Assembly: GCA_964422625.1 (NCBI GenBank)
Contig: CAYRBN010000001.1
Span: forward strand, 1-47,226
DNA length: 47,226 nucleotides
From: an uncultured bacterium
GTDB taxonomy: Bacteria; Hydrothermota; UBA3073
Direction of reading: 5' to 3'
How positions within the stretch are numbered: the first letter of the stretch is position 1; each line of letters opens with the position of its first letter. The notes under the pieces are model-generated. The model worked only from the letters and a program-made list of their open reading frames with translations, made no database searches and had not been told where the DNA came from. Of the stretch, positions 6,690-47,170 are shown piece by piece. The translations under genes were made by a program, and so were the position numbers.

Positions 6690-6779
6690 AGTCCACCTCC
6701 TGTTAACGGTTTGCGTGTTTGCGAAATTAAAGAAACTTAATAATCTACGAAAACCTGCGTCCTAAAAAGAGAGCATTTT

Positions 6780-7865
6780 TCAATTTTCATTTTTCATTTT
6801 GCATTGAGCAATGGTCCCTCCCCCCACCACTATTTCACCATCATAAAAGACTATTGCCTGCCCTGGAGTGATCGCCATCTGTGGTTCTACGAATTTTACC
6901 AGAATATTCTTTCCATCAAGAGGTGAAATCTCTGCGGGGATCTCTTTGTGACGATATCGTATCTTTGCCTTTAATTTAACTGGCGCTTTTAATTCTTTTA
7001 TAGCTATCCAGTTCAGATCAGAGGCTATAAGCTCATCTCCAAATAAATCCTCTCTTTTGCCCACCATAATAGCATTTCGCAGATAATTCATAGCAATCAC
7101 ATATAATCGCTCTATTGATTTTGATAGATTTAGCCCTTTACGTTGTCCTATAGTATAAAATGGGATTCCCCGGTGTTCACCAATAATCTTGCCCTCTTTA
7201 TCCAATATAGGTCCTGGCTTGGACGCAAAAAACTGGGAATAACCTCCAGCAATGAAATCCTGACTCTCCTGTCTCTCATCAACACCAAGCCCGAGGTCTT
7301 TTGCTATTTTCCTTGTCTCTTCTTTGGTGTAAATGCCCAGAGGAAAAAGAGAGAATCCAAGCTGCTCCTGAGATAAGGAGTAAAGGAAATAAGACTGGTC
7401 TTTGTTTTCATCCACACCCTTTTTTAGGAGATGTCCATCTCCTGTTTTATTCTGTTCTATTCGGGCATAATGACCTGTCGCGAAATAATCAAACGAACCC
7501 TTGAGCCTTTCAATCAAAGCACCAAATTTCACCAAGCAGTTACACCTGATGCAAGGGTTAGGAGTTCTTCCTATGAGGTATTCCTTATAGAAATAGTCCA
7601 AAACATAGCTCTTATACTCCTGTTTCATATCAATTATATTGAGTGGGATATCTAATCTCTCTGCCACCTTTCTGGCATCTAATATATCTTCTCTCTCTCC
7701 TGGTCCATAGCATGCATGCCGAAGCCCTTCCTTGCAAGTGCTCTCCCCATCCCATATCTTCATTGTTACTCCGGAGAGTTGATACCCCTCTTCTTTAAGT
7801 AGAGCGGCGGCAACGGATGAATCCACGCCTCCACTCATTGCTATGACAACCCGCAATTTAGACAT
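6780..7865 (-). CDS. mnmA: tRNA 2-thiouridine(34) synthase
   Basis: PP-loop VVIAMSGGVDSSVAA, the CIRCN cysteine and the MnmA C-terminal barrel region. 361 aa. Confidence 0.9.
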   Translation of the reverse strand: MSKLRVVIAMSGGVDSSVAAALLKEEGYQLSGVTMKIWDGESTCKEGLRHACYGPGEREDILDARKVAERLDIPLNIIDMKQEYKSYVLDYFYKEYLIGRTPNPCIRCNCLVKFGALIERLKGSFDYFATGHYARIEQNKTGDGHLLKKGVDENKDQSYFLYSLSQEQLGFSLFPLGIYTKEETRKIAKDLGLGVDERQESQDFIAGGYSQFFASKPGPILDKEGKIIGEHRGIPFYTIGQRKGLNLSKSIERLYVIAMNYLRNAIMVGKREDLFGDELIASDLNWIAIKELKAPVKLKAKIRYRHKEIPAEISPLDGKNILVKFVEPQMAITPGQAIVFYDGEIVVGGGTIAQCKMKNEN

Positions 7866-16389: not shown

Positions 16390-16415
16390 CTACTCACTAC
16401 TCACTACTCGCTACT
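16390..16415 (-). repeat. gtgagta heptamer array spanning the speD stop and the speD-speE spacer
   Basis: Minus strand reads agtagcgagtagtgagtagtgagtag. It encodes the last speD codons (..SSE) and the stop. Confidence 0.85.
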
Positions 16416-16769
16416 CATATCCACAACCCCTCTCTTAATGAAGGATATTTTGACATGCTCTGGCCGAAATGTGGTTTTCAAATGTTCTATAGCGATGTCT
16501 ACATCAATACTATCACTGCACGAGAAAAAATCTATTGCAGCATAGTTGTGCTCTGGCCAGGTGTGCACCGAGAAGTGAGATTCTGCTATTATTACAACGC
16601 CTGATACACCATAAGGTTTGAAATGATGAAATCTGGAGGTTATTACTCTGGCATGAGATAGGCAGGCTGCTTCAAGAAATGCCTCCTCTACTTTTCCTGA
16701 GTCAGAAATTAGAGATGGCAAACACCCATAGAACTCTATAATGGTATGTCTCCCTAATATCTTTTCCAC
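16404..16769 (-). CDS. speD: S-adenosylmethionine decarboxylase proenzyme (small bacterial/archaeal type)
   Basis: Self-cleavage and active-site context IIAESHFSVHTWPE. 121 aa, GTG start. Confidence 0.85.
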   Translation of the reverse strand: MEKILGRHTIIEFYGCLPSLISDSGKVEEAFLEAACLSHARVITSRFHHFKPYGVSGVVIIAESHFSVHTWPEHNYAAIDFFSCSDSIDVDIAIEHLKTTFRPEHVKISFIKRGVVDMSSE

Positions 16770-19859: not shown

Positions 19860-19935
<76 letters not shown>

Positions 19936-23134: not shown

Positions 23135-23176
23135 ATTTGCAATTTGCATTTTACAATTTGCAATTTGCATTTTACA
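23135..23176 (+). repeat. exact 2 x 21-bp tandem repeat (atttgcaatttgcattttaca)
   Basis: Units at 23135-23155 and 23156-23176 are identical. Confidence 0.9.
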
Positions 23177-23178
23177 AT
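23150..23178 (+). promoter_or_regulatory. candidate promoter TTTACA-17-TACAAT generated by the 21-bp duplication
   Basis: -35 (23150-23155) comes from unit 1 and -10 (23173-23178) from unit 2. It sits about 25 nt before ATG 23203, which has a GGGGG RBS. Confidence 0.45.
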
Positions 23179-23202
23179 GGAGCGAAGCGACCTGGGGGTT
23201 AT

Positions 23203-24606
23203 ATGGAATATATCTCTCCACAACCAAAAGAGAAGAGCCGAAAGTTGATTGAGAGGGATAGAAGGTTGATGTTTTCTGCACATACACGTTCAGATGAGCT
23301 TCCTCTTGCAGTAGATTATGCAAAGGGGGTCAGGATATGGGACATTGATGGAGATAGCTATCTTGACTTTACTGCGGGATATGCTGTCTGTGCAACAGGA
23401 CACTGCAATGAGGAGATTATCAGGGCTGTGGAAGAACAGACCCGTAGGCTGATTCATATCGGGGGTAGCGACTTCTACTATGAACCCCAGGTTACTCTTG
23501 CAGAAAAACTGATAGAGATTACTCCTGGTTCTTATGATAAGAGGATCTATTTTGGAAACTCTGGGGCAGAGTCCCTGGAAGCAGCTCTAAAGATAGCAAG
23601 ATATTTCACAAGACGACCACAAGTTATCTCATTCTTCGATGGGTTTCACGGAAGAACATATGTTGGAATGTCACTTTCAGGAAGTAAAAAAGTTCAAAAA
23701 GCACACTTCTCTCCCCTTATCCCAGAGGTTACCCATACATTCTATCCATACTGTTATAGATGTCCACTCAATCTTACATATCCAGGATGTATTAAGGAAG
23801 AATTTGAGGGGGTTCCACTTATCTCTTGTGTGGACTTTCTTCTGAATACAATATTTAAACAGATCTGTGACCCTGAAGATGTTGGGGCAATATTTGTTGA
23901 ACCTATCCAGGGAGCGGGAGGATATATAGTTCCACCAGAGGAGTTTCTTTTACTCCTCTCTATGATAGCAAAAAAATGGGGTATTATTCTTGTTATGGAC
24001 GAGATACAATCAGGGCTTGGAAGGACAGGAAAGTGGTTTGCCTCTGACCATTTTGGGGTTGAGCCTGATATAGTATGTATAGCAAAGGCATTGGGAGCAG
24101 GGTTGCCAATATCTGCAACGGTTGGACGGGCAGATCTTATGGATGCGGCTGTGGATAAGAGGGCATGGGTTAAAGGTTCTCACGGTTCCACATTTGGAGG
24201 CAATCCGGTTGCTTGTGCAGCAGGCATAAAGACACTTGAACTGCTTGAGGGAGGAGTGATGGAGAATGCAGGCTCTGTGGGCAGTTTCATAATGGAGAGA
24301 TTAAAAGAGATAAAAGAGAAACATAGGATTATAGGGGAAGTGAGGGGCAAGGGACTTATGATAGGGATAGAACTGGTGAAGGATAAGAAGACAAAGGAGA
24401 GGTTCCCAGAAAATCTTACAGGTGATGGAAAGGGGATAAAAGAGGTTGTGATTGGTTCCTGTTTCAAGAAGGGCTTATTCGTTCTTGGATGTGGCAGAGA
24501 TACAATAAGGTTCTCACCACCGCTCGTATTAAGAGAAGAAGAGGCAGAGGAAGGACTTTCAATATTTGAGAGCGCGATTGAAGAGATAGAGGGATTAGTT
24601 GGTTAG
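23203..24606 (+). CDS. class-III (ArgD/GabT-like) PLP aminotransferase
   Basis: GNSGAESLEAALK, DEIQSGLGRTGKWFA and STFGGNP motifs. Start set at MEYISPQ. Confidence 0.85.
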   Translation: MEYISPQPKEKSRKLIERDRRLMFSAHTRSDELPLAVDYAKGVRIWDIDGDSYLDFTAGYAVCATGHCNEEIIRAVEEQTRRLIHIGGSDFYYEPQVTLAEKLIEITPGSYDKRIYFGNSGAESLEAALKIARYFTRRPQVISFFDGFHGRTYVGMSLSGSKKVQKAHFSPLIPEVTHTFYPYCYRCPLNLTYPGCIKEEFEGVPLISCVDFLLNTIFKQICDPEDVGAIFVEPIQGAGGYIVPPEEFLLLLSMIAKKWGIILVMDEIQSGLGRTGKWFASDHFGVEPDIVCIAKALGAGLPISATVGRADLMDAAVDKRAWVKGSHGSTFGGNPVACAAGIKTLELLEGGVMENAGSVGSFIMERLKEIKEKHRIIGEVRGKGLMIGIELVKDKKTKERFPENLTGDGKGIKEVVIGSCFKKGLFVLGCGRDTIRFSPPLVLREEEAEEGLSIFESAIEEIEGLVG

Positions 24607-24690
24607 GTAGTTAGTTTGTTAGTTGGTTAGTCAGTTACAAGTTACAAGTTACGAGTAACAAGTCAAACAAGAAACTCGTTACTTGTTACT
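24595..24690 (+). repeat. tandem-heptamer arrays (gttagtt-type, then gttacaa-type) starting inside the last codons of the aminotransferase
   Basis: ttagttggttaggtagttagtttgttagttggttag is followed by gttacaagttacaagttacgagtaacaagt. Confidence 0.85.
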
Positions 24691-24752
24691 GTTCGTATTG
24701 TGGGAGGCATCTCCTGATGCCGATGGTCAAGGTCAGGAGACCTTTCCCACAT

Positions 24753-24891
24753 AATATTAGCACACAGATTTTCACAGATAAAACTGATTTACACAAATAT
24801 AATTCATTATAAAGATTTTTTTTGAAATCTGTGCCTATCTATTCAATCTGTGAAATCTGTGTGCTTTTCCTCTTTTTTTTCTTGACTTTTT
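24753..24891 (+). repeat. palindromic MITE-like element, copy 2, carrying the holA -35 box
   Basis: TIRs are AGCACACAGATTTTCACAGAT (24759-24779) and ATCTGTGAAATCTGTGTGCT (24846-24865). The interior is near-identical to copy 1. Confidence 0.85.
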
Positions 24892-26001: not shown

Positions 26002-28098
26002 ATGATTTTTCTTTATTTAGTCATTTTAGCCATCCCTGTATGGTCTACTGATACCTGGGATGGAGGAGGGGGACAGTTCATCTGGAATGATACAAGTATG
26101 TATCTATATTCAGAGGGGTTATGTGGAGGAAGATTCCATGGCAAGATTGTACTCTATACCCCTTACCTTTCAGAACCACATTTTGTCAATCTTGAGGGAC
26201 TGAAGGAACTACATGTCATTATCCAATTACCTGATGGGAGGATACTTATAGCAGGGGAAAAGAATAATAGCGGAGTTATATATCTGAGTGAGGATGGAGG
26301 ATATACATGGAGTGAAGCAGTGCTACCCCCAGATATTCTCTCTGTCAGATCTCTAACTTATTATGATGGAAAATTTATTGCAGGAGTTACAGATATTCAT
26401 AATCGGGGATATATACTCCTTTCAGATAATGGGATAAGCTGGACACTAGAGAGTGGACATATGGAACATTCTATTTTGTCTCTCCTTGTAAGGGCGGATG
26501 GATACGGGTTTGCAGGAACAGGAAATCGCGGATGGCTGTACTGGACAAATTTTGCAAAGGATTGGAGTGGGCTAACAGTGATAGGATTATTAGGTATCAG
26601 AACCATAAACCATCTTTACCAGACATCCTCTGGCAGGATATATGCGGCAACAAGATCTACAACCAATGAGGGAAGGGTGTTCTATTCTGATATTGGTGGA
26701 ACAGGTGGATGGGAACTTATCCCTTCTATATTTGGACAGTCTGCATACTCTATAGCAGAGGATGATAAAGGGAATCTATATGTGGGAACAGGAGATTTTG
26801 ATGGAAGGGTATTTGTGATACGGGAAGATATTGTGAGTGGGACCCCTGCGACCGGAACCCAGAGGGTCAATTCTGTCCTCTCTGATTTTGATGGAGATAT
26901 ATACATTGGAGCAACCTCTTTTGAGGGTGGAGTCAATGTTGGAAGAATCCTCGTCTTCTCTAATGGTGACTGGGTCCACTCGGTCAAGGTGGACACATTG
27001 AGAGCAATAAGGGTTATTTTCATCACCCAGGATGGGAAGTTGGTCTTTGGTGGTGAAGGTAGCTATATCGGGGTTTACGGACATAGGAGAGAGGGTTTTC
27101 TGGTCTCTTCAATCTATGATGTTGGCACTGATAATGGGAGTGTCCGATACCGCTATATTGATTGGGATGGTACCCTAAACGGTGGAGCGATCACGGTAAG
27201 GGTAAGGACAGGAACATCCACTGATACATCCCAATATCTCCCCTGGGAATACTGCCCCCCACTGGAGAAAGGACAGTTCCTTGAGGGTGTAAATGGTATC
27301 AATCCTGGGGATAGATATATCCAGTACAGAGTGGACATCTCATCGCCCTCATCTGCCCTGACACCGCTATTTCATAATATTAGGGTATTTTACACGATAG
27401 ATACTGTTGGTCCTATAATTACGAGTACGGAAGTATTTATGGAACCAGAATCATATCCATATATAGATTCTTTAGACCTTGTATTCAGTGAACCGACAAA
27501 CCGTCCTGATATATATATAGGAAACATTGACAGGGTTCTATCTCTCTCAAATAATCACTCATGGCTTTCAAGTGATGGGTTTATAGGAGGGATTGGCTGG
27601 GTCTCTGATGAGAGACTCCGAATAAGGCTTCTCTTCTTTGGTGACACGCCTGCAACAGTGCGTATTGGGGATATGATATATCCCGACTCATCCACAATAA
27701 GGGATGAATATGAAAATCCAAGTGTTAGGCCTGTTGCTATTAAACAGATCGGTATAGAAGAGAGAGAAAAATTAAGAATTACGAATTATGAATTAAGAAT
27801 TTATCCAAATCCGTTCAGAGGCTTCGTGCGTATAGCGTATAGCGTAATGCGTAATGCGTCAGAGAAACACTCTACGCCTAACGCTCTACGCCCTACGCCT
27901 TACGCTTTACGCATCTACGACCTCTCAGCCCGCCTCATCCGCACCATACCGATTACCGAACACCGATTACCGATTACCGAAGTAACCTGGGATGGCAGGG
28001 ATAAACAGGGAAACGAGGTAAAGTCAGGGGTATATTTTATAAGATTGGAGGGGACCTCTTTCCAGGAGATAACAGAAAAGGTTATACTGATCCGATAA
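26002..28098 (+). CDS. secreted BNR/beta-propeller protein with T9SS C-terminal sorting domain
   Basis: Signal peptide, BNR motifs (SEDGGYTWS, SDNGISWT) and a C-terminus IYPNPF...LRIYDL...VTWDGRDKQGNEVKSGVYFIRL. Confidence 0.8.
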   Translation: MIFLYLVILAIPVWSTDTWDGGGGQFIWNDTSMYLYSEGLCGGRFHGKIVLYTPYLSEPHFVNLEGLKELHVIIQLPDGRILIAGEKNNSGVIYLSEDGGYTWSEAVLPPDILSVRSLTYYDGKFIAGVTDIHNRGYILLSDNGISWTLESGHMEHSILSLLVRADGYGFAGTGNRGWLYWTNFAKDWSGLTVIGLLGIRTINHLYQTSSGRIYAATRSTTNEGRVFYSDIGGTGGWELIPSIFGQSAYSIAEDDKGNLYVGTGDFDGRVFVIREDIVSGTPATGTQRVNSVLSDFDGDIYIGATSFEGGVNVGRILVFSNGDWVHSVKVDTLRAIRVIFITQDGKLVFGGEGSYIGVYGHRREGFLVSSIYDVGTDNGSVRYRYIDWDGTLNGGAITVRVRTGTSTDTSQYLPWEYCPPLEKGQFLEGVNGINPGDRYIQYRVDISSPSSALTPLFHNIRVFYTIDTVGPIITSTEVFMEPESYPYIDSLDLVFSEPTNRPDIYIGNIDRVLSLSNNHSWLSSDGFIGGIGWVSDERLRIRLLFFGDTPATVRIGDMIYPDSSTIRDEYENPSVRPVAIKQIGIEEREKLRITNYELRIYPNPFRGFVRIAYSVMRNASEKHSTPNALRPTPYALRIYDLSARLIRTIPITEHRLPITEVTWDGRDKQGNEVKSGVYFIRLEGTSFQEITEKVILIR
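27769..27980 (+). repeat. four heptamer arrays embedded in-frame inside the T9SS CTD coding region
   Basis: aattaag x4 (27769-27802), gcgtata/gcgtaat x4 (27828-27859), the inverse word ctacgcc x5-6 (27872-27912) and ccgatta x4 (27949-27980). Confidence 0.85.
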
Positions 28099-29615: not shown

Positions 29616-29655
29616 GGCTAACCCTTGCGGTTACCCAAAGAGTAGAGAGTTTAGT

Positions 29656-30772: not shown

Positions 30773-32278
30773 ATGGTAAAATGTGTCTTTTGTAGTAGCG
30801 AAATTAGGAATATATTCCTTTTTTGCCCTTATTGTGGCAAAAAACAAAAAATTTCCTGTCCAGGTTGTGGTGAAAAGATTCCCGTGGATTCTTCTGTATG
30901 TGAATTTTGTGAAATACAGGTGGGGGGGTTTGAGTCTGCAAAAGTTATATGGGACGAAACAGAAAAATTGATGGAGAGATGCGACTACGATGAGGCAAGA
31001 ATAAGGGTTGAAGAGCTTATCACCAACAAGACTTACAAAGATAAGGCAAGAAAGATGATGGATGAGATAGATAGAAGAATAAAGACATACAAAGAGAGTA
31101 TCAAAATGGGTGATAATTATCTGAAACAGGGCAGACTGGTAAGAGCAAGGGATGCCTTTAAGAATGCACTCAAGGGAAACCCCAGTGACCATCGTTCCTA
31201 TCTTAAGCTTACAGAGATAGAGAAGAGATTAAAGGGTAGAAGATTGAAGAGGGTTTTTTTGGTTATAACTATTCTGCTTCTATCTTCTATAGCCTACTAC
31301 CATCATTACAGAAACAGGCTGGATATAATAGCAATCACCCAACTTGAATCACTTCTTGATAGTGACTATGAAGATATAAGAGAGGCATCTGCACTGACAC
31401 TTGGATGGATGGGAAATAGAAGGAGTGTCCCTCTATTGAAGGAGATGCTTCACACAGATAATGAGACAAAGAAGATCTACGCCTTATCAGCCCTTGCAAT
31501 GGCAGGTGAAAGACGGGTAATCGCACCCCTTCTCATCCTGATAGATGAGGGAGAAGAACCATCCCGCATAGCGGCTCTCTATTCTATCTATAGAGCATTG
31601 GGAGACTTGAGGACTGTCTCGGTAGAGGAGGGAGATTCATTGGTTATTCTTGGCAAGGCTTTATTAAACCTATCCCTTGGAGATACGACTCAGATTGGTC
31701 TAATAAGGAGGAGCCTCATCTCAGATGATACAGAGGTATTTACAACCCTCTACCTTCTTATGCTTCTTGGAGATGCGAAGATGATATCTTCTCTTATTTC
31801 TGATATAAGTTCTCATCTTGAATCGGATGACAGAGAGATAAGAACCATTGCAGCGCTTATCTTACAGGAGGCAGGTGTCCCGGATGTACCCGAGACCAAA
31901 CGAATTCTGTGGGAATCGCTCATCACAGAGAGAGATGAATCAAAATACGGGTGTTCTGTGCGTAGACTTGCTCTCTTGCGGAATATTATATATATGCGAG
32001 GGGATGAGGAGTTTTTAGTCATGCCTGACATTGCATCCCTTCGCGAGAGGCTTCACCACTTACTCTCTATTTATGAACTTGGTAGCCTAAATAGAGAGGA
32101 TGATATTATACCACTTCTCTCAAGCACCGATATATATGATAACTTAATAGCAAATCTCTATCTGTTTATTATAGAGAGAGAAAGAGGTTCAAAGGAGGTT
32201 CTTGAAACATTCTTGAGGCATGACAACAAGAGAGTCAGGTTTGCCACTGCGAAGCTGATATTAAATTTTCTCTTATGA
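30773..32278 (+). CDS. double-zinc-ribbon / TPR-like / single-TM / HEAT-repeat protein (paralog 1)
   Basis: CVFC..CPYC..CPGC..CEFC at the N-terminus, TM segment VFLVITILLLSSIAYY, then HEAT-like repeats (DIREASALTLGWMGNRRSVPLL...). Confidence 0.6.
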   Translation: MVKCVFCSSEIRNIFLFCPYCGKKQKISCPGCGEKIPVDSSVCEFCEIQVGGFESAKVIWDETEKLMERCDYDEARIRVEELITNKTYKDKARKMMDEIDRRIKTYKESIKMGDNYLKQGRLVRARDAFKNALKGNPSDHRSYLKLTEIEKRLKGRRLKRVFLVITILLLSSIAYYHHYRNRLDIIAITQLESLLDSDYEDIREASALTLGWMGNRRSVPLLKEMLHTDNETKKIYALSALAMAGERRVIAPLLILIDEGEEPSRIAALYSIYRALGDLRTVSVEEGDSLVILGKALLNLSLGDTTQIGLIRRSLISDDTEVFTTLYLLMLLGDAKMISSLISDISSHLESDDREIRTIAALILQEAGVPDVPETKRILWESLITERDESKYGCSVRRLALLRNIIYMRGDEEFLVMPDIASLRERLHHLLSIYELGSLNREDDIIPLLSSTDIYDNLIANLYLFIIERERGSKEVLETFLRHDNKRVRFATAKLILNFLL

Positions 32279-33276
32279 TCTGCTTCTATCTGATACTGAC
32301 TATTCTCCTCTCTTCTGATACCGTTTTAGAGGACACAATAATACGAGATTTTTTTGAAATCCCCATCTCTCGTATTGCAAAGGAAGAGAGCTTTATAAGA
32401 ATGGCAATCAAGGAGGGGATAGTAAGAGATAGACCTTTAATACTTCTGAAACCAGAGGAACTCAAGCCTGTAAAATTTACGAGGGAGAGGGAGAGAGAGA
32501 GACTTATCCATCAGGACTTCTTATTAGAGGAAGAGCGAGAGGTCCCTTCTATAATTGAGGTACCAGAAAGGCATAAGATAGAGATAAGACCAACCGAGGA
32601 GCTGGTAAGGATAGAGATAGAGCCAGAGCTGAGGGATGAGGAACTTATTCTTGGTGAGGAGATAGAGGTGCTAAGAATGGATGTAATTAGGGTTTTAGAA
32701 AAGGGGAAGAGAGATTTCACCCCTCTTATCTCTACTGCCATTTCTGTCGGCACTGTCCCTGTCAAGATAAGTGCAATCAAGGCCCTGGAGTCAGAAGAGC
32801 CCAGCATTGCCATACCTATGTTGAAAGAGGCATTAAGTGACCAGGCATGGAAGGTCCGACTTGAGGCGGCAAAAGGACTTGCCAGACGGGGTGAGGAAGA
32901 TGGATACAGGGAGATGAGGGCAGCGCTTCTGATAGAAGAGCCAGAGGCAAAGAGTGAGGCGGCAAGGGTGCTTGGTGAGATTGGTGATGTCAGATCATTA
33001 CCTGAGTTGAGAAGGTATATCTCCCATCCTAACCCGGATGTGAGAAAGCAGGCGATCATCTCACTTGGGATACTGAAGGACCAAGCATCTGTCCTTCTAA
33101 TAGAGTCTGCCCTATCAGATCCAGATGTGGAGGTGAGAGGCTCAGCCGCAAGAGCGCTTGGGGAGATAGGTGATTCTACTGCCATTCCAGCTCTCAAGAG
33201 AGTTATGCTTTCTGATGAGTGTTCAGTTATCAGGGTCTTTGCTGCGGAAGCCATATTGAGAATAGAACAAAAGTAG
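32275..33276 (+). CDS. membrane-anchored Glu-rich / HEAT-repeat (PBS-lyase HEAT-like) protein (paralog 2)
   Basis: ATGA overlap with the upstream stop. N-terminal anchor and E-rich repeats. Clear HEAT units such as DPDVEVRGSAARALGEIGDSTAIPALK. Confidence 0.6.
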   Translation: MICFYLILTILLSSDTVLEDTIIRDFFEIPISRIAKEESFIRMAIKEGIVRDRPLILLKPEELKPVKFTRERERERLIHQDFLLEEEREVPSIIEVPERHKIEIRPTEELVRIEIEPELRDEELILGEEIEVLRMDVIRVLEKGKRDFTPLISTAISVGTVPVKISAIKALESEEPSIAIPMLKEALSDQAWKVRLEAAKGLARRGEEDGYREMRAALLIEEPEAKSEAARVLGEIGDVRSLPELRRYISHPNPDVRKQAIISLGILKDQASVLLIESALSDPDVEVRGSAARALGEIGDSTAIPALKRVMLSDECSVIRVFAAEAILRIEQK

Positions 33277-33305
33277 AGAGTAGAGAGTTAAACAGGAGGC
33301 GTTAG

Positions 33306-34130
33306 ATGGTCTGTCCACAATGTAGAAACGCTATTGAACAAAATTGGTTCTTCTGCGCATGGTGCGGAGTAAACATTGTATATTATCATAAAGCGCTAGA
33401 GTACATAGACCATGGAAAACATCTTGAGGAGATATATAGATACGATGAGGCACTCACATCTTATCAGAAAGCAGTTTCATTTGGTATAGCATCAGATACT
33501 GTCGATCCTTTACTGGAAAAAGTATCTAAATTGCTTGATAGGTTTATCTATCTGAGTGACAAAGGTAGATCACTGAAAAGGAAGGGAAAGTGGAGAGCTG
33601 CTTATCTATCACTCAGGAAGGCATCTTTATTAAATCCGATAGATGATTCGATCAAAAGAGATTTAACTTTTCTTAAGGACAAGTTACAGAAAAGGTTACG
33701 GAGAAAGATTATATATATAGTAACAATTTTCACTCTTCTTGTTGTTGGAGGAACTAGTTATCTCTGGTATATCAATACTCCACAGTATTTAGCAAGAAAG
33801 ACACTGATAAAATCCACATATTCTACAAATGCAGTTGTCCGCAGGAGAGCAATTGAGGCAATGGGCAATGTGGGGGACAGGAGATTCCTTCCGATTATAA
33901 GAGAGTACCTTGCGGATTCGGATACCTATGTAAGACAAGAGGCAATAAGGGCTTTGTTCAAGATTGAAGATACTGCAAGTGTGGAGTATATAAGACCCCT
34001 TATGAAGGACGATGATGAGAGAGTGAGGATAACCGCTGCAAAACTACTCGCAGATATGGGTGATTCCTCTGCAATGAACTATTTGAGAAGATTCGTGAAT
34101 AGAGGAGAGAGAAGTGAGAGTAGTGAGTAG
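33306..34130 (+). CDS. zinc-ribbon / TPR-like / single-TM / HEAT-repeat protein (paralog 3)
   Basis: CPQC...CAWC, TM segment IIYIVTIFTLLVVGG and HEAT units (VRRRAIEAMGNVGDRRFLPII..., DERVRITAAKLLADMGD). RBS is AGGAGG. Confidence 0.6.
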   Translation: MVCPQCRNAIEQNWFFCAWCGVNIVYYHKALEYIDHGKHLEEIYRYDEALTSYQKAVSFGIASDTVDPLLEKVSKLLDRFIYLSDKGRSLKRKGKWRAAYLSLRKASLLNPIDDSIKRDLTFLKDKLQKRLRRKIIYIVTIFTLLVVGGTSYLWYINTPQYLARKTLIKSTYSTNAVVRRRAIEAMGNVGDRRFLPIIREYLADSDTYVRQEAIRALFKIEDTASVEYIRPLMKDDDERVRITAAKLLADMGDSSAMNYLRRFVNRGERSESSE

Positions 34131-34350
34131 TGAGTAGTGAGTAGAGCGTAAGGCGTAGAGCGTAGGAAGTAGAGCGTAGGGCGTAATCGGTTATCAGTAA
34201 TCGGTAAAAACCAGACCTCCCTCAGTCATTAATCTTGACCTTTGACTTTTAGACTTTTACACCTGGCACCTGACACCTGGCACCTATAACTTATTTGAAT
34301 TTGTGATTTGGAATTTGTTTGTGATTTGTGATTTGAAATTTGGAATTTGT
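34113..34350 (+). repeat. long concatenation of heptamer arrays (six or more words)
   Basis: In order: gtgagta, gcgtaga/gcgtagg, cggttat/cagtaat, cttgacc/tttgact, acacctg/gcacctg and gaatttg/tgatttg blocks. The first block encodes the last codons of the upstream ORF. Confidence 0.9.
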
Positions 34351-43731: not shown

Positions 43732-43774
43732 CCCTTCCCTTTTTCCTTTATCCTTTTTCCTTTATCCTTTTTTT
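43732..43774 (-). repeat. ggataaa/ggaaaaa heptamer array spanning the coaBC stop and the coaBC-udg spacer
   Basis: The minus strand reads aaaaaaaggataaaggaaaaaggataaaggaaaaagggaaggg and encodes ..KKRIKEKG-stop. Confidence 0.85.
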
Positions 43775-44920
43775 ATACAACCTCTCAACTCTGTCAAGTA
43801 TTATACAGGATGCTTTTTTTTTGCTCATAAGAGGATATGTAGTCTGACTGCCATCCCTTTTTATTATAGTAAATGTTGTATCTTTTTCCCCTATCACAGA
43901 AGGTGCATTTGCTACAATCATATCAAGTGATTTTTCATAGAGCTTTTTCTTGGAGTTCTCTATAAGTTCACCGTCTTCAAGAGAAAAGCCTATCAGTATC
44001 TTCTCCCTCCCCTTTTTTCTCAATTTTTTGAGAATGTCCTCGGTTGGCTCCATCCGCAGGGTGAGAGTGCCATTTCTCCTTTCTATTTTGGTCTTACTTA
44101 TCTTTTGGGGTCTGAAGTCTGATACTGCCGCAGCCATTATAACTATATCATTATCAGGAAGAAGTTCTAAAAGTTTCTCTTCAAGCTCTTTTGCATTGTG
44201 CACCCTTATACCCCACGATATCGGAAAATCAGTTGCTCCCTTCACAAGAGTAACACTTCCCCCCCTTCTCCTTATCTCTTTTGCTATCTCATACCCCATA
44301 AGTCCCGAAGATCTGTTTGTGACAACCCTCACAGAGTCTATATTCTCCTCAGTTCGCCCTGTGGTAACCAGGATTTTCACCCCCAGGAGGGAAGAGGACT
44401 TTTTCATAATATCATAGACATATTCTACTATTGTTTCAGGCTCAGCCAGCCTTCCTTCTCCCTTATCTCCACATGCAACCTCACCCTCCTCCGGGGGTAT
44501 GATAAAATAGCCAAGATCCTTTAGTCTATTGATATTATTTTGTATTATGGGATTATTCCACATAGCAGGATTCATAGCAGGAGCAATCACCACAGGACAT
44601 CTTGCAGCGGCAACCACAGATGTCAAAAGGTCATCTGCAACACCTGCGATTATCTTACCTATTATATTGTAGCTTGCAGGGGCTATCAGTATGAGGTCAT
44701 TATGTGCAAGGCTTATATGAAGCAACTTCTCTTCTGGGATAAATGAGCCCTTAAATATTTTATGTTCTGACAATACAGAGAGTGTTAATGGGGATACAAA
44801 ATACTCCGCAGAAGAGGTGAGCACACAGAATAGATCCTCACCTTTCTTCTTAAATTCTCTCAAGATATGTATTGCCTTATAGGCAGATATACTGCCTGTT
44901 ATGCCGAGAGTGATTTTCAT
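43748..44920 (-). CDS. coaBC: bifunctional phosphopantothenoylcysteine decarboxylase/synthetase
   Basis: 390 aa. Flavoprotein N-domain (ITLGITGSISAYK) plus the CoaB C-domain. ATGA overlap with the rpoZ stop. Confidence 0.95.
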   Translation of the reverse strand: MKITLGITGSISAYKAIHILREFKKKGEDLFCVLTSSAEYFVSPLTLSVLSEHKIFKGSFIPEEKLLHISLAHNDLILIAPASYNIIGKIIAGVADDLLTSVVAAARCPVVIAPAMNPAMWNNPIIQNNINRLKDLGYFIIPPEEGEVACGDKGEGRLAEPETIVEYVYDIMKKSSSLLGVKILVTTGRTEENIDSVRVVTNRSSGLMGYEIAKEIRRRGGSVTLVKGATDFPISWGIRVHNAKELEEKLLELLPDNDIVIMAAAVSDFRPQKISKTKIERRNGTLTLRMEPTEDILKKLRKKGREKILIGFSLEDGELIENSKKKLYEKSLDMIVANAPSVIGEKDTTFTIIKRDGSQTTYPLMSKKKASCIILDRVERLYKKRIKEKG

Positions 44921-46483: not shown

Positions 46484-46589
46484 AGTTAGCTATTTTTCTC
46501 TGTGCACTCTTTTAGTGCAAAAATCCTCATTAAGATATACTACGACTTTTATATTAGAGAGCACAGAGAATCCTTTGAGAATCACAGAT

Positions 46590-46618
46590 AACCAACTAAC
46601 AAACTAACCAACTAATTT
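46590..46618 (-). repeat. gttagtt-type array forming the last codons and stop of gmk
   Basis: The minus strand reads aaattagttggttagtttgttagttggtt and encodes ..K-L-V-G-stop. Confidence 0.85.
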
Positions 46619-47170
46619 ACCCTGCTTCACTATTATCGCTGAAACCTCTCTTACTGCATCTTTCAGAGATTCATTTCTTACTGTCCAGTCAAATCTTCCT
46701 ATCTCATTCATTTCTCTCTCTACCTCTTTGATTCTTCTGTTTATTGTATCCATCCCATCGCCTCTCTCTATAAGTCTCTTCTTTAGCTCTTCTATGGAAG
46801 GCGGAGATAGGAAGATAGTAACTACATCCTCTCTTTTGGATTTCATAGTGAGAGCACCCTGGATATCAAGGTCAAGTATAACACTATAACCTTTATCTAA
46901 TAGCTCATCAACAGGTTCCCTGGGAGTGCCGTAGTAATCTCCGTAAACAACTGCCCACTCATAGAACCTATCTTCCTTAATCCATCTCTTAAATGTAGAA
47001 ACATCCAGAAAATAGTAGTCTCTACCGTCAAGCTCATTCTTTCTTAGTTTTCTCGTTGTAACAGATATTGAATATCTTATATCTTTGTGCAGTTTCAATA
47101 GCTCTTGCGCCACCGAGGTTTTGCCTACACCTGATGGACCTACTATAACTATCATAACTGGCTTGTTCAT
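46604..47170 (-). CDS. gmk: guanylate kinase
   Basis: GPSGVGKTS P-loop and TTRKLR...G.DYYF motif. 188 aa. Confidence 0.95.
   Translation of the reverse strand: MNKPVMIVIVGPSGVGKTSVAQELLKLHKDIRYSISVTTRKLRKNELDGRDYYFLDVSTFKRWIKEDRFYEWAVVYGDYYGTPREPVDELLDKGYSVILDLDIQGALTMKSKREDVVTIFLSPPSIEELKKRLIERGDGMDTINRRIKEVEREMNEIGRFDWTVRNESLKDAVREVSAIIVKQGKLVG

Follow-up and report, generated by a model that had tools for sequence, protein, structure and literature searches.

In an uncultured bacterium of the Hydrothermota (UBA3073; assembly GCA_964422625.1), about one gene in seven ends inside a short tandem array of 7- or 8-base units that supplies its stop codon and often its last few residues. The stretch analysed, referred to below as the window, is the 47,226-nt contig CAYRBN010000001.1 (C1) of a 1.49-Mb, 97%-complete assembly (G000) that has 154 contigs and 41% GC. 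Across the whole genome, the stop codon lies within a period-7 or period-8 array found by Tandem Repeats Finder (TRF) in 163 of 1,224 open reading frames (ORFs). We consider it probable (roughly 0.75) that these array caps rewrite gene ends as a by-product of repeat spread combined with tolerance, and do not act as a stop-supplying device.

Array-borne stop codons across the genome

ORFs of at least 90 aa were identified with a simple home-made caller, greedy by length, and the 1,224 ORFs make up 82% of the genome. The share with array-borne stops is 13.7% among ORFs of at least 100 aa and reaches 15–16% among those of at least 200–300 aa, which shows that the effect does not stem from spurious short ORFs. 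A stricter score, based on self-periodicity through the stop, is reached at 96–112 of 1,168 stops, compared with 3 of 865 control positions placed 150 nt inside genes. One word, TTAGTTGGTTAG, is present in 119 copies in 1.49 Mb where 0.18 are expected, and nine of the copies finish exactly at an ORF stop. Unrelated proteins share their C-terminal tripeptides: SSE closes 23, DKG 11, LVG 9 and RKA 8, when 0.2–0.6 of each would be expected from internal frequencies. The commonest C-terminal pentapeptides genome-wide are VVSSE (8), IKDKG (5), VESSE (4) and VASSE (4). Essential enzymes are among the array-ended genes, including valS, prfA, tpiA, metK, ispG, murF, coaBC, gmk, and ppdK.

Stop codons are used almost evenly in this genome (TAA 403, TAG 389, TGA 376), and this use of TAG is unusually high for 41% GC. 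TAG closes 61% of array-ended genes. The arrays were nevertheless rejected as the cause of the TAG-rich usage, because genes without array ends still use TAG in 31–32% of cases.

The arrays themselves are abundant. TRF reported 985 of period 7 and 335 of period 8, against 57 of period 6 and 153 of period 9, with 75 rows in the window. Although ORFs take up 82% of the genome, 74% of period-7 array bases lie outside them. An Rfam search gave no match at the arrays; its sole match was a tRNA (19860-19932). The repeat vocabulary comprises about 150 words, each with position-specific use, and individual words are common to 30–50 loci each. This vocabulary is specific to the lineage and differs even between genera of the same family. 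For example, AAGGATAAAGGATAA occurs in 85 copies here and in at most 11 in any of 30 relatives, and GTGAGTAGTGAGTAG in 50 copies here and at most 4 in the relatives.

The words that close genes hold TAA, TAG or TGA on the sense strand and lie flush with the upstream gene (AAGGATA, GTGAGTA, GTTAGTTK, GGCGTAR). Neither 7 nor 8 is divisible by three, so a stop triplet within such a unit closes all frames within 21–24 nt. The longest tail that (AAGGATA)n can encode is R-I-K-D-K-G, and GTGAGTA, which holds both TGA and TAG, allows at most V-V-S-S-E; the commonest tails are the longest that the words allow. Counted with the stop, the coding-sequence codons that fall within the array number one to seven with uniform frequency (26, 17, 22, 30, 19, 17, and 21 genes; chi-square p = 0.38), as expected if the array boundary falls in random phase and the first in-frame array stop is used. 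Only 11 of the 163 overlaps exceed seven codons, and the longer cases examined hold variant units without a stop. In a regular array, units can be gained or lost without moving the first in-frame stop, so slippage cannot alter the tail.

Gene ends in the window

An initial annotation of the window, made from the sequence alone, had read the terminal codons and stops of five unrelated proteins as repeat words, and all five sequences do end as it described. The class-III aminotransferase (23203..24606, + strand) ends EGLVG, with PF00202 spanning residues 29-459 of 467 and the array-coded residues following the domain. Guanylate kinase (gmk; 46604..47170, − strand) ends GKLVG, with PF00625 at residues 6-181 of 188. 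The same word, ttagttggttag, does encode L-V-G-stop in both, as had been proposed, but the arrays have a period of 8 (GTTAGTTK) and are not heptameric. The array at the aminotransferase has 5.4 units (24595..24637, +), of which the first 12 nt are the shared word; at gmk, 3.4 units of GTTGGTTA / GTTAGTTK (46589..46615, −) contribute the same 12 nt.

The gene for S-adenosylmethionine decarboxylase (speD; 16404..16769, −) ends DMSSE and has a complete PF02675 domain at residues 8-114 of 121. Its stop is covered by four units of a GTGAGTA-type heptamer array (16390..16417, −), which also fills the 14-nt gap to the ATG of the next gene. A zinc-ribbon/HEAT-repeat protein gene (33306..34130, +) ends SESSE; there, a GAGTAGT array passes into a GTAGRGC array (34109..34185, +), and the first 22 nt encode RSESSE and the stop. 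The coaBC gene (43748..44920, −) has a conserved core ending RLYKKR and then closes with RIKEKG, encoded by aggataaaggaaaaaggataa. This is part of a 4.7-unit AAGGAWA heptamer array (43738..43770, −), of which 23 nt encode R-I-K-E-K-G-stop and the remainder continues into the 24 nt that separate coaBC from its downstream neighbor.

Two further gene ends in the window are of this kind. The mnmA gene (6780..7865, −), not among the five cases of the initial annotation, ends CKMKNEN, encoded with its stop by 26 nt of an AAAAATG-type heptamer array (6774..6805, −). A 2.4-unit AGTAGAG array (33272..33288, +) holds the stop codon, and no further codons, of ORF 32275-33276 (+). In all five window genes with an enzyme-domain match, the array-coded residues lie 3' of the Pfam domain end.

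Downstream of the aminotransferase, a second array, AGTTACA x4.4 (24633-24663), is followed by a short inverted copy (24674-24690), and together they form a small hairpin (24633..24690, +). No other paired arm was found near the five genes. A hairpin or terminator reading of the five arrays was rejected, since apart from this small hairpin they have no complementary arm within 900 nt.

Arrays also affect gene starts as called. The true start of the aminotransferase is the ATG at 23203, and a longer ORF beginning with TTG reads through the array upstream of it (LQFAFYNLQFAFYN, window 23137-23202). Where arrays of the antisense or stop-free kind lie upstream of true starts, some of their frames stay open, and ORF callers carry N-termini on through them.

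Array-coded tails compared with those of orthologues

The tails were compared with those of orthologues from relatives, of which the nearest whole genomes are seven of the same family (58–81% amino-acid identity, family-level relatives only). In eight of nine genes, the tail differs from the point at which conservation ends. Thus, the claim of the initial annotation that arrays define C-termini holds for these eight and is weak for the ninth, the aminotransferase.

In coaBC, the core of the relatives ends LW(E/K)(E/K)R. Genus g3 stops there, and the genome studied here adds IKEKG. Genus g2 and two metagenome relatives have other array ends: RKMG (GATGGGG), AMRDEG (GGGATGA), and RGKSDE. A metagenome scan for close coaBC relatives found none above 70% identity. 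The speD product ends RGIVKT in the relatives and RGVVDMSSE here. In gmk, the relatives have AII(I/V)AE(K/R)xxxKR followed by 6–12 further residues, compared with AIIVKQGKLVG here, without the AE(K/R)xxxKR tail. On other contigs, the metK, tpiA, prfA, and ispG tails depart from those of the relatives exactly at the end of conservation, with similar total length. ORF 33306-34130 has no orthologue among five same-family genomes, so its tail can be judged from the array alone. As a separate observation, gmk of genus g2 relatives (L004, L005; 59–65% identical) has GTTAGTTK 3–10 nt after its stop, followed by an inverted copy that gives a hairpin.

The glmS gene lies in an operon that appears to have been horizontally acquired; it has 52% GC in a genome of 41% GC, and the closest named matches are from Bipolaricaulota/Acetothermia. 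Its product ends DLEVRSPKSEV, encoded from (GAAGTCC)3, whereas relatives that are 89–91% identical end DLKVDE, DLARGP or DLGV. The glmS-glmL spacer is 6 nt here and 120–236 nt in the two relatives read at the DNA level (P0023/L116 and P0025/L118). In L118 this spacer is array-free; in L116 it carries a 2.5-unit GATGAGK mini-array across its own glmS stop.

The aminotransferase is the exception. Its array-free relatives end EIE(S/T)(L/A)LG(Y/F), which already resembles LVG, and this makes the case a weak one. The codons tta ctt gga tat tga of the relatives and tta gtt ggt tag here are alike at 9 of 12 compared positions, so that the end is no more diverged than the rest of the gene; the only clear change is a stop where relatives have Y or F. 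The initial annotation had proposed aligning the five proteins with orthologues, and had noted that shared C-terminal residues in array-free orthologues would make the likeness of codons and words coincidental. The ends proved lineage-specific in coaBC, speD, and gmk, and partly shared in the aminotransferase.

Such coincidence, or reversed causality, can be put in general terms: native codons resembled a word, an array was seeded there by slippage or captured by microhomology, and the C-terminus is essentially ancestral. The aminotransferase would suit this explanation, its native end matching the word about as well as expected at such divergence, and so would coaBC, where the aaa aag aga taa of relatives is close to a AAGGATAA unit. 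The same tails nevertheless recur in dozens of unrelated proteins, and the gmk, speD, metK, tpiA, prfA, ispG, and glmS orthologues end differently. Local seeding should moreover give locus-specific units, when the words actually sit at 30–50 loci each and are expanded only in this lineage. We therefore consider this explanation quite unlikely.

Stability among strains and turnover between lineages

Strain variants at least 98% identical were available from independent assemblies of other samples, a small sample of two to five per gene. No tail differs in any of them (gmk 3, coaBC 2, ORF 33306 5, aminotransferase 4, glmS 4), and the arrays are identical too wherever the DNA of the independent assemblies extends beyond the stop. 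In the 240-nt multi-array spacer that follows ORF 33306, strains differ by two substitutions only, both outside the arrays.

Between lineages that are about 10% diverged, the tails do differ (speD, glmS). The speD product of a sister lineage (~92% identical) ends RGIVESRA, encoded in GTAGAGA-GTAGGGC-GTAGAGT units. The flanks of this locus are ~90% identical, and the array segment has been rewritten with a 4-nt indel. In speD, the residues RG and the ATG of the following gene lie 36–43 nt apart in every lineage, as in-place replacement would give. Since tails are identical among strains and rewritten between lineages, and the vocabulary is lineage-specific, the tails appear to turn over between species and not between strains.

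These observations do not support the strain-to-strain variation in C-terminal length that the initial annotation had considered possible. They also bear on the arrays as contingency loci, in which copy-number slippage would vary C-terminal length between strains or cells and so give protein diversity. The rewriting of array regions between the lineages is compatible with this, as is the finding that many contigs of independent assemblies stop at arrays and that 37 of 308 contig ends in the present assembly lie within 20 nt of one. However, contig breaks are equally explained by the recurrence of the same 30-nt words at many loci, and arrays are a cause of assembly fragmentation. With every tail and array identical among the strain variants, and with the first in-frame stop of a regular array staying in place as units are gained or lost, a contingency role is very improbable. 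In phase-variable contingency loci, copy number differs among close strains and unit gain or loss alters the product; here, the arrays sit at the extreme end of the ORF. Separately, contigs of independent metagenome assemblies (L108, L111, L114, L115) were seen to end inside or just past arrays.

Word positions, strand, and a possible function

The words are placed with an evident syntax. AAAGGAT, AGTAGTG, AGTTGGTT, AGGGCGT, and AAGGCGT have median starts at −12 to +3 nt relative to the upstream stop; AACTAAT, AACCAAT, and AACCGAT are mid-spacer words, and ACTGCTT, ATTTTTC, and AGGATTT lie close to the next start. Orientation is locked to the neighboring genes, with sense and antisense counts of 48 and 7 for AAAGGAT, 32 and 7 for AGTAGTG, and 29 and 2 for AGGGCGT.

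Stop-anchored arrays could be a selected genome-wide 3'-end signal, serving as universal or backup stops or as sites for proteins or RNases in the 3' untranslated region, with the tails perhaps acting as tags. Stop-bearing words would then be favored because they allow such a signal to adjoin coding ends or to run into them. The word-specific positions, the strand lock, and the exact conservation of arrays among strains while nearby unique spacer has single-nucleotide differences all speak for such a function. So does the stop content of the sense strand, where 63% of arrays have stop-bearing words compared with 51% after letter shuffling, with no such excess on the antisense strand (40% and 40%). 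This excess is modest and is overstated, because words are not independent samples. Stop-bearing words are also no commoner in arrays 0–20 nt after a stop (61–65%) than in distant ones (55–59%); the 85% in stop-overlapping arrays is forced by definition. These figures lend no support to the role as ready-made stops put forward by the initial annotation. We found nothing to indicate selection of the words as stops, beyond a filter whereby only stop-bearing words can overlap a gene end harmlessly.

Other observations sit poorly with a selected signal. Even genera of the one family differ in their vocabulary, unlike what a conserved signal would show, and tail lengths uniform over one to seven codons are those of random entry. 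CsrA, considered as a reader of the GGA-rich AAGGAT arrays, was dropped, as no CsrA gene was found in the 97%-complete genome. A selected function is, on this balance, unlikely, though the positional syntax and the strand lock keep it alive at low probability.

PF05635 cassettes with inverted heptamer arms

The gene-end vocabulary recurs in a recognizable element. Ten ORFs in the genome encode PF05635, the four-helix-bundle protein of 23S rRNA intervening sequences (IVS). They lie on contigs C139, C43, C49, C88, C6, C67, C28, C53, C37, and C7 (loci L120-L127), and the ORF on C67 holds an internal TAG. All 10 cassettes are located between protein-coding genes and not in 23S rRNA. Complementary heptamer arms bracket 10 of 10 of these ORFs (inverted-alignment scores of 12–28, compared with 7–10 for the reversed control), and the arm words are those of the gene ends (GTGAGTA, GGCGTWR, AAGGATA, GGTAATC, GGAGACA, and others). 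In three cases, the 5' arm gives the upstream gene its stop and tail: KCKCK on C139, LSVRR of ppdK on C49, and KLKDKG on C37. Thus, an identifiable inserted element does donate stops in this genome. No PF05635 ORF is present at the five gene ends of the initial annotation. Matching of inverted partners by consensus unit paired 121 of 1,271 arrays, where 60 +/- 11 were expected, which is a real excess involving a minority of arrays.

One could go further and regard the arrays as stop-anchored 3'-end punctuation tied to these cassettes. The cassettes would be autonomous, with some 1,000 solo arrays derived from them and mobilised or recognised by them, and the syntax would direct RNA processing or termination at gene ends. 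We hold this to be improbable. If true, it would offer a mechanism for the long-unexplained heptamer repeats of bacteria and for the IVS protein.

Two coding sequences seem to contain array words internally. In ORF 26002-28098 (+), the in-frame words AATTAAG and TGCGTAA, the complementary CTCTACG/CGCCTTA, and then TACCGAT occur at window 27769-27985. The region corresponds to a C-terminal sorting domain of the type IX secretion system (PF18962), matched by residues 600-695 over 74 model positions, which makes it about 22 residues too long; the match scores 21.8 bits, where the cut-off is 27 bits. The sorting domain seems to have taken up a hairpin with heptamer arms. In valS (contig C6:15533-18133, −), internal peptides that read as array words (KKEKGKRIKDKGQTAG and QNAKCKMQNG) suggest that a housekeeping enzyme, too, has taken up arrays in frame.

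Other repeats were also noted. A composite element, (AATGMAA)n followed by AAAATGCTCTTTTTTAGGACGCAGATTTTCG, stands after several genes (window 6740-6805 and contigs C106, C79, and C78), and its core, TTTAGGACGCAG, is present in 72 copies in the genome. Small palindromic repeats (window 24706-24756 and 29617-29640) include GTGGGAGGCATCTCC...CAGGAGACCTTTCCCAC in 22–25 copies and GGGTAACCCTTGCGGTTACCC in 46 copies.

How array ends may arise and be tolerated

We propose the following account, which builds on the observed anatomy and statistics of the gene ends, on tails that are derived and stable within the species, and on the link to cassettes at 10 loci. Gene ends are capped by 7- or 8-base tandem arrays drawn from a small vocabulary that has expanded massively in this lineage, and the same vocabulary builds the inverted arms of the PF05635 hairpin cassettes. 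Where an array replaces a gene end, the protein would lose a dispensable tail only and gain at most about five to seven fixed residues, such as RIKDKG, VVSSE, (L)LVG or RRKA. Selection would purge only those replacements that cut into the conserved core, and a tail would stay as it is unless its junction or its units are rewritten. Replacement may have proceeded by insertion, conversion or deletion, and the array-coded tails are presumably neutral.

The initial annotation had suggested that arrays expanded or were inserted across the original stops. Of these, expansion alone does not suffice, as it cannot overwrite coding sequence, and replacement or insertion is needed. Pure slippage was rejected as the mechanism for this reason, because it only adds units inside the array and leaves the upstream codons untouched.

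Several points weigh against the account of repeat spread and tolerance. Passive tolerance does not explain how strictly the words keep to their positions or how tightly they are anchored at stops, and both could reflect function. At the aminotransferase, a similar native end may have captured the word or been converted into it, and a chance match or seeding of the array by that end is conceivable; the ancestral coaBC end likewise resembles its array unit. A complementary partner within 900 nt was found for only 9–13 of 149 gene-end arrays (controls 1–5), and the five arrays of the initial annotation have none within that distance, their scores of 6–8 equaling those of the controls. Finally, the ORF set comes from a home-made caller and not from a trained gene finder.

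If repeat spread and tolerance is the right account, a family of selfish or neutral repeats can spread to the C-termini of much of a proteome, essential enzymes included, and rewrite them without visible harm. The gene ends described here also illustrate quantitatively why units of 7–8 nt that carry a stop are tolerated there. For annotation of WOR-3 and similar metagenome-assembled genomes, it follows that shared SSE, DKG, and LVG tails are not motifs, that ORF callers run through stop-free antisense arrays, and that contigs break at arrays. The ten PF05635 cassettes beside heptamer arrays provide a testable link to IVS-type elements.

Comparison with known repeat systems

Dispersed short intergenic repeats, such as the cyanobacterial short tandemly repeated repetitive (STRR) heptamers and the small mobile repeats of the REP, Correia, and RPE type, which insert at gene ends or within them, are sometimes incorporated into reading frames and alter protein ends. 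To our knowledge, no report describes STRR as setting a sizeable share of C-termini. Miniature inverted-repeat transposable element (MITE)-like elements are single palindromic units, not tandem 7-mers.

Among heptamer repeats, the TAACTGA direct repeats of marine Beggiatoaceae, which also occur in some cyanobacteria and Bacteroidetes, are similar to those described here in consisting of tandem 7-nt units that are mostly intergenic and strand-oriented (MacGregor, 2015; PMC4679880). Forward TAACTGA repeats carry stops in all three frames, overlap the ends of coding sequences by at most 18 nt, and overlap 13 upstream ORF stops (PMC4679880). The overlap limit of this class, ~18–21 nt, is also encountered here, where overlaps are of one to seven codons and longer in 11 of 163 cases. 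In Beggiatoaceae there is one dominant word, located mostly 1 nt upstream of starts, whereas about 150 position-specific words are found here. TAACTGA itself is a minor word in the present genome, with 7 arrays at a median distance of 18 nt from the next start. Stops here come from other, stop-proximal words, which represent the same kind of repeat but another word family, and 163 ORFs are affected here compared with 13–14 for TAACTGA in Beggiatoaceae.

The G-rich heptamers of Xanthomonas and Nostoc (GGGAATC / GGGGA(C/T)T) lie within 50 bp of stops or overlap them (Rehm et al., 2015; PMC4692102). As here, these heptamer arrays are enriched between co-oriented ORFs (PMC4692102). Their words form G-quadruplexes and have a preferred copy number of four, whereas the words described here are purine- and AT-rich.

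The IVS of Coxiella burnetii encodes an S23p/PF05635 ORF. It is a selfish element that forms a hairpin and has inverted repeats at its termini (Warrier et al., 2016; PMC4990558), and tandem GACAGAT heptamers are found beside its ORF (PMC4990558). The 10 loci described here share with it a PF05635 ORF and complementary heptamer arms. The Coxiella element sits in 23S rRNA, however, and the cassettes here lie between protein-coding genes. Unlike IVS cassettes, more than 90% of the gene-end arrays, including the five of the initial annotation, are without an ORF and a partner arm. The overlap of repeats with stop codons has thus been published before; what is added here is a new host in which such overlap is unusually dense, affecting about one ORF in seven, and not a new kind of repeat.

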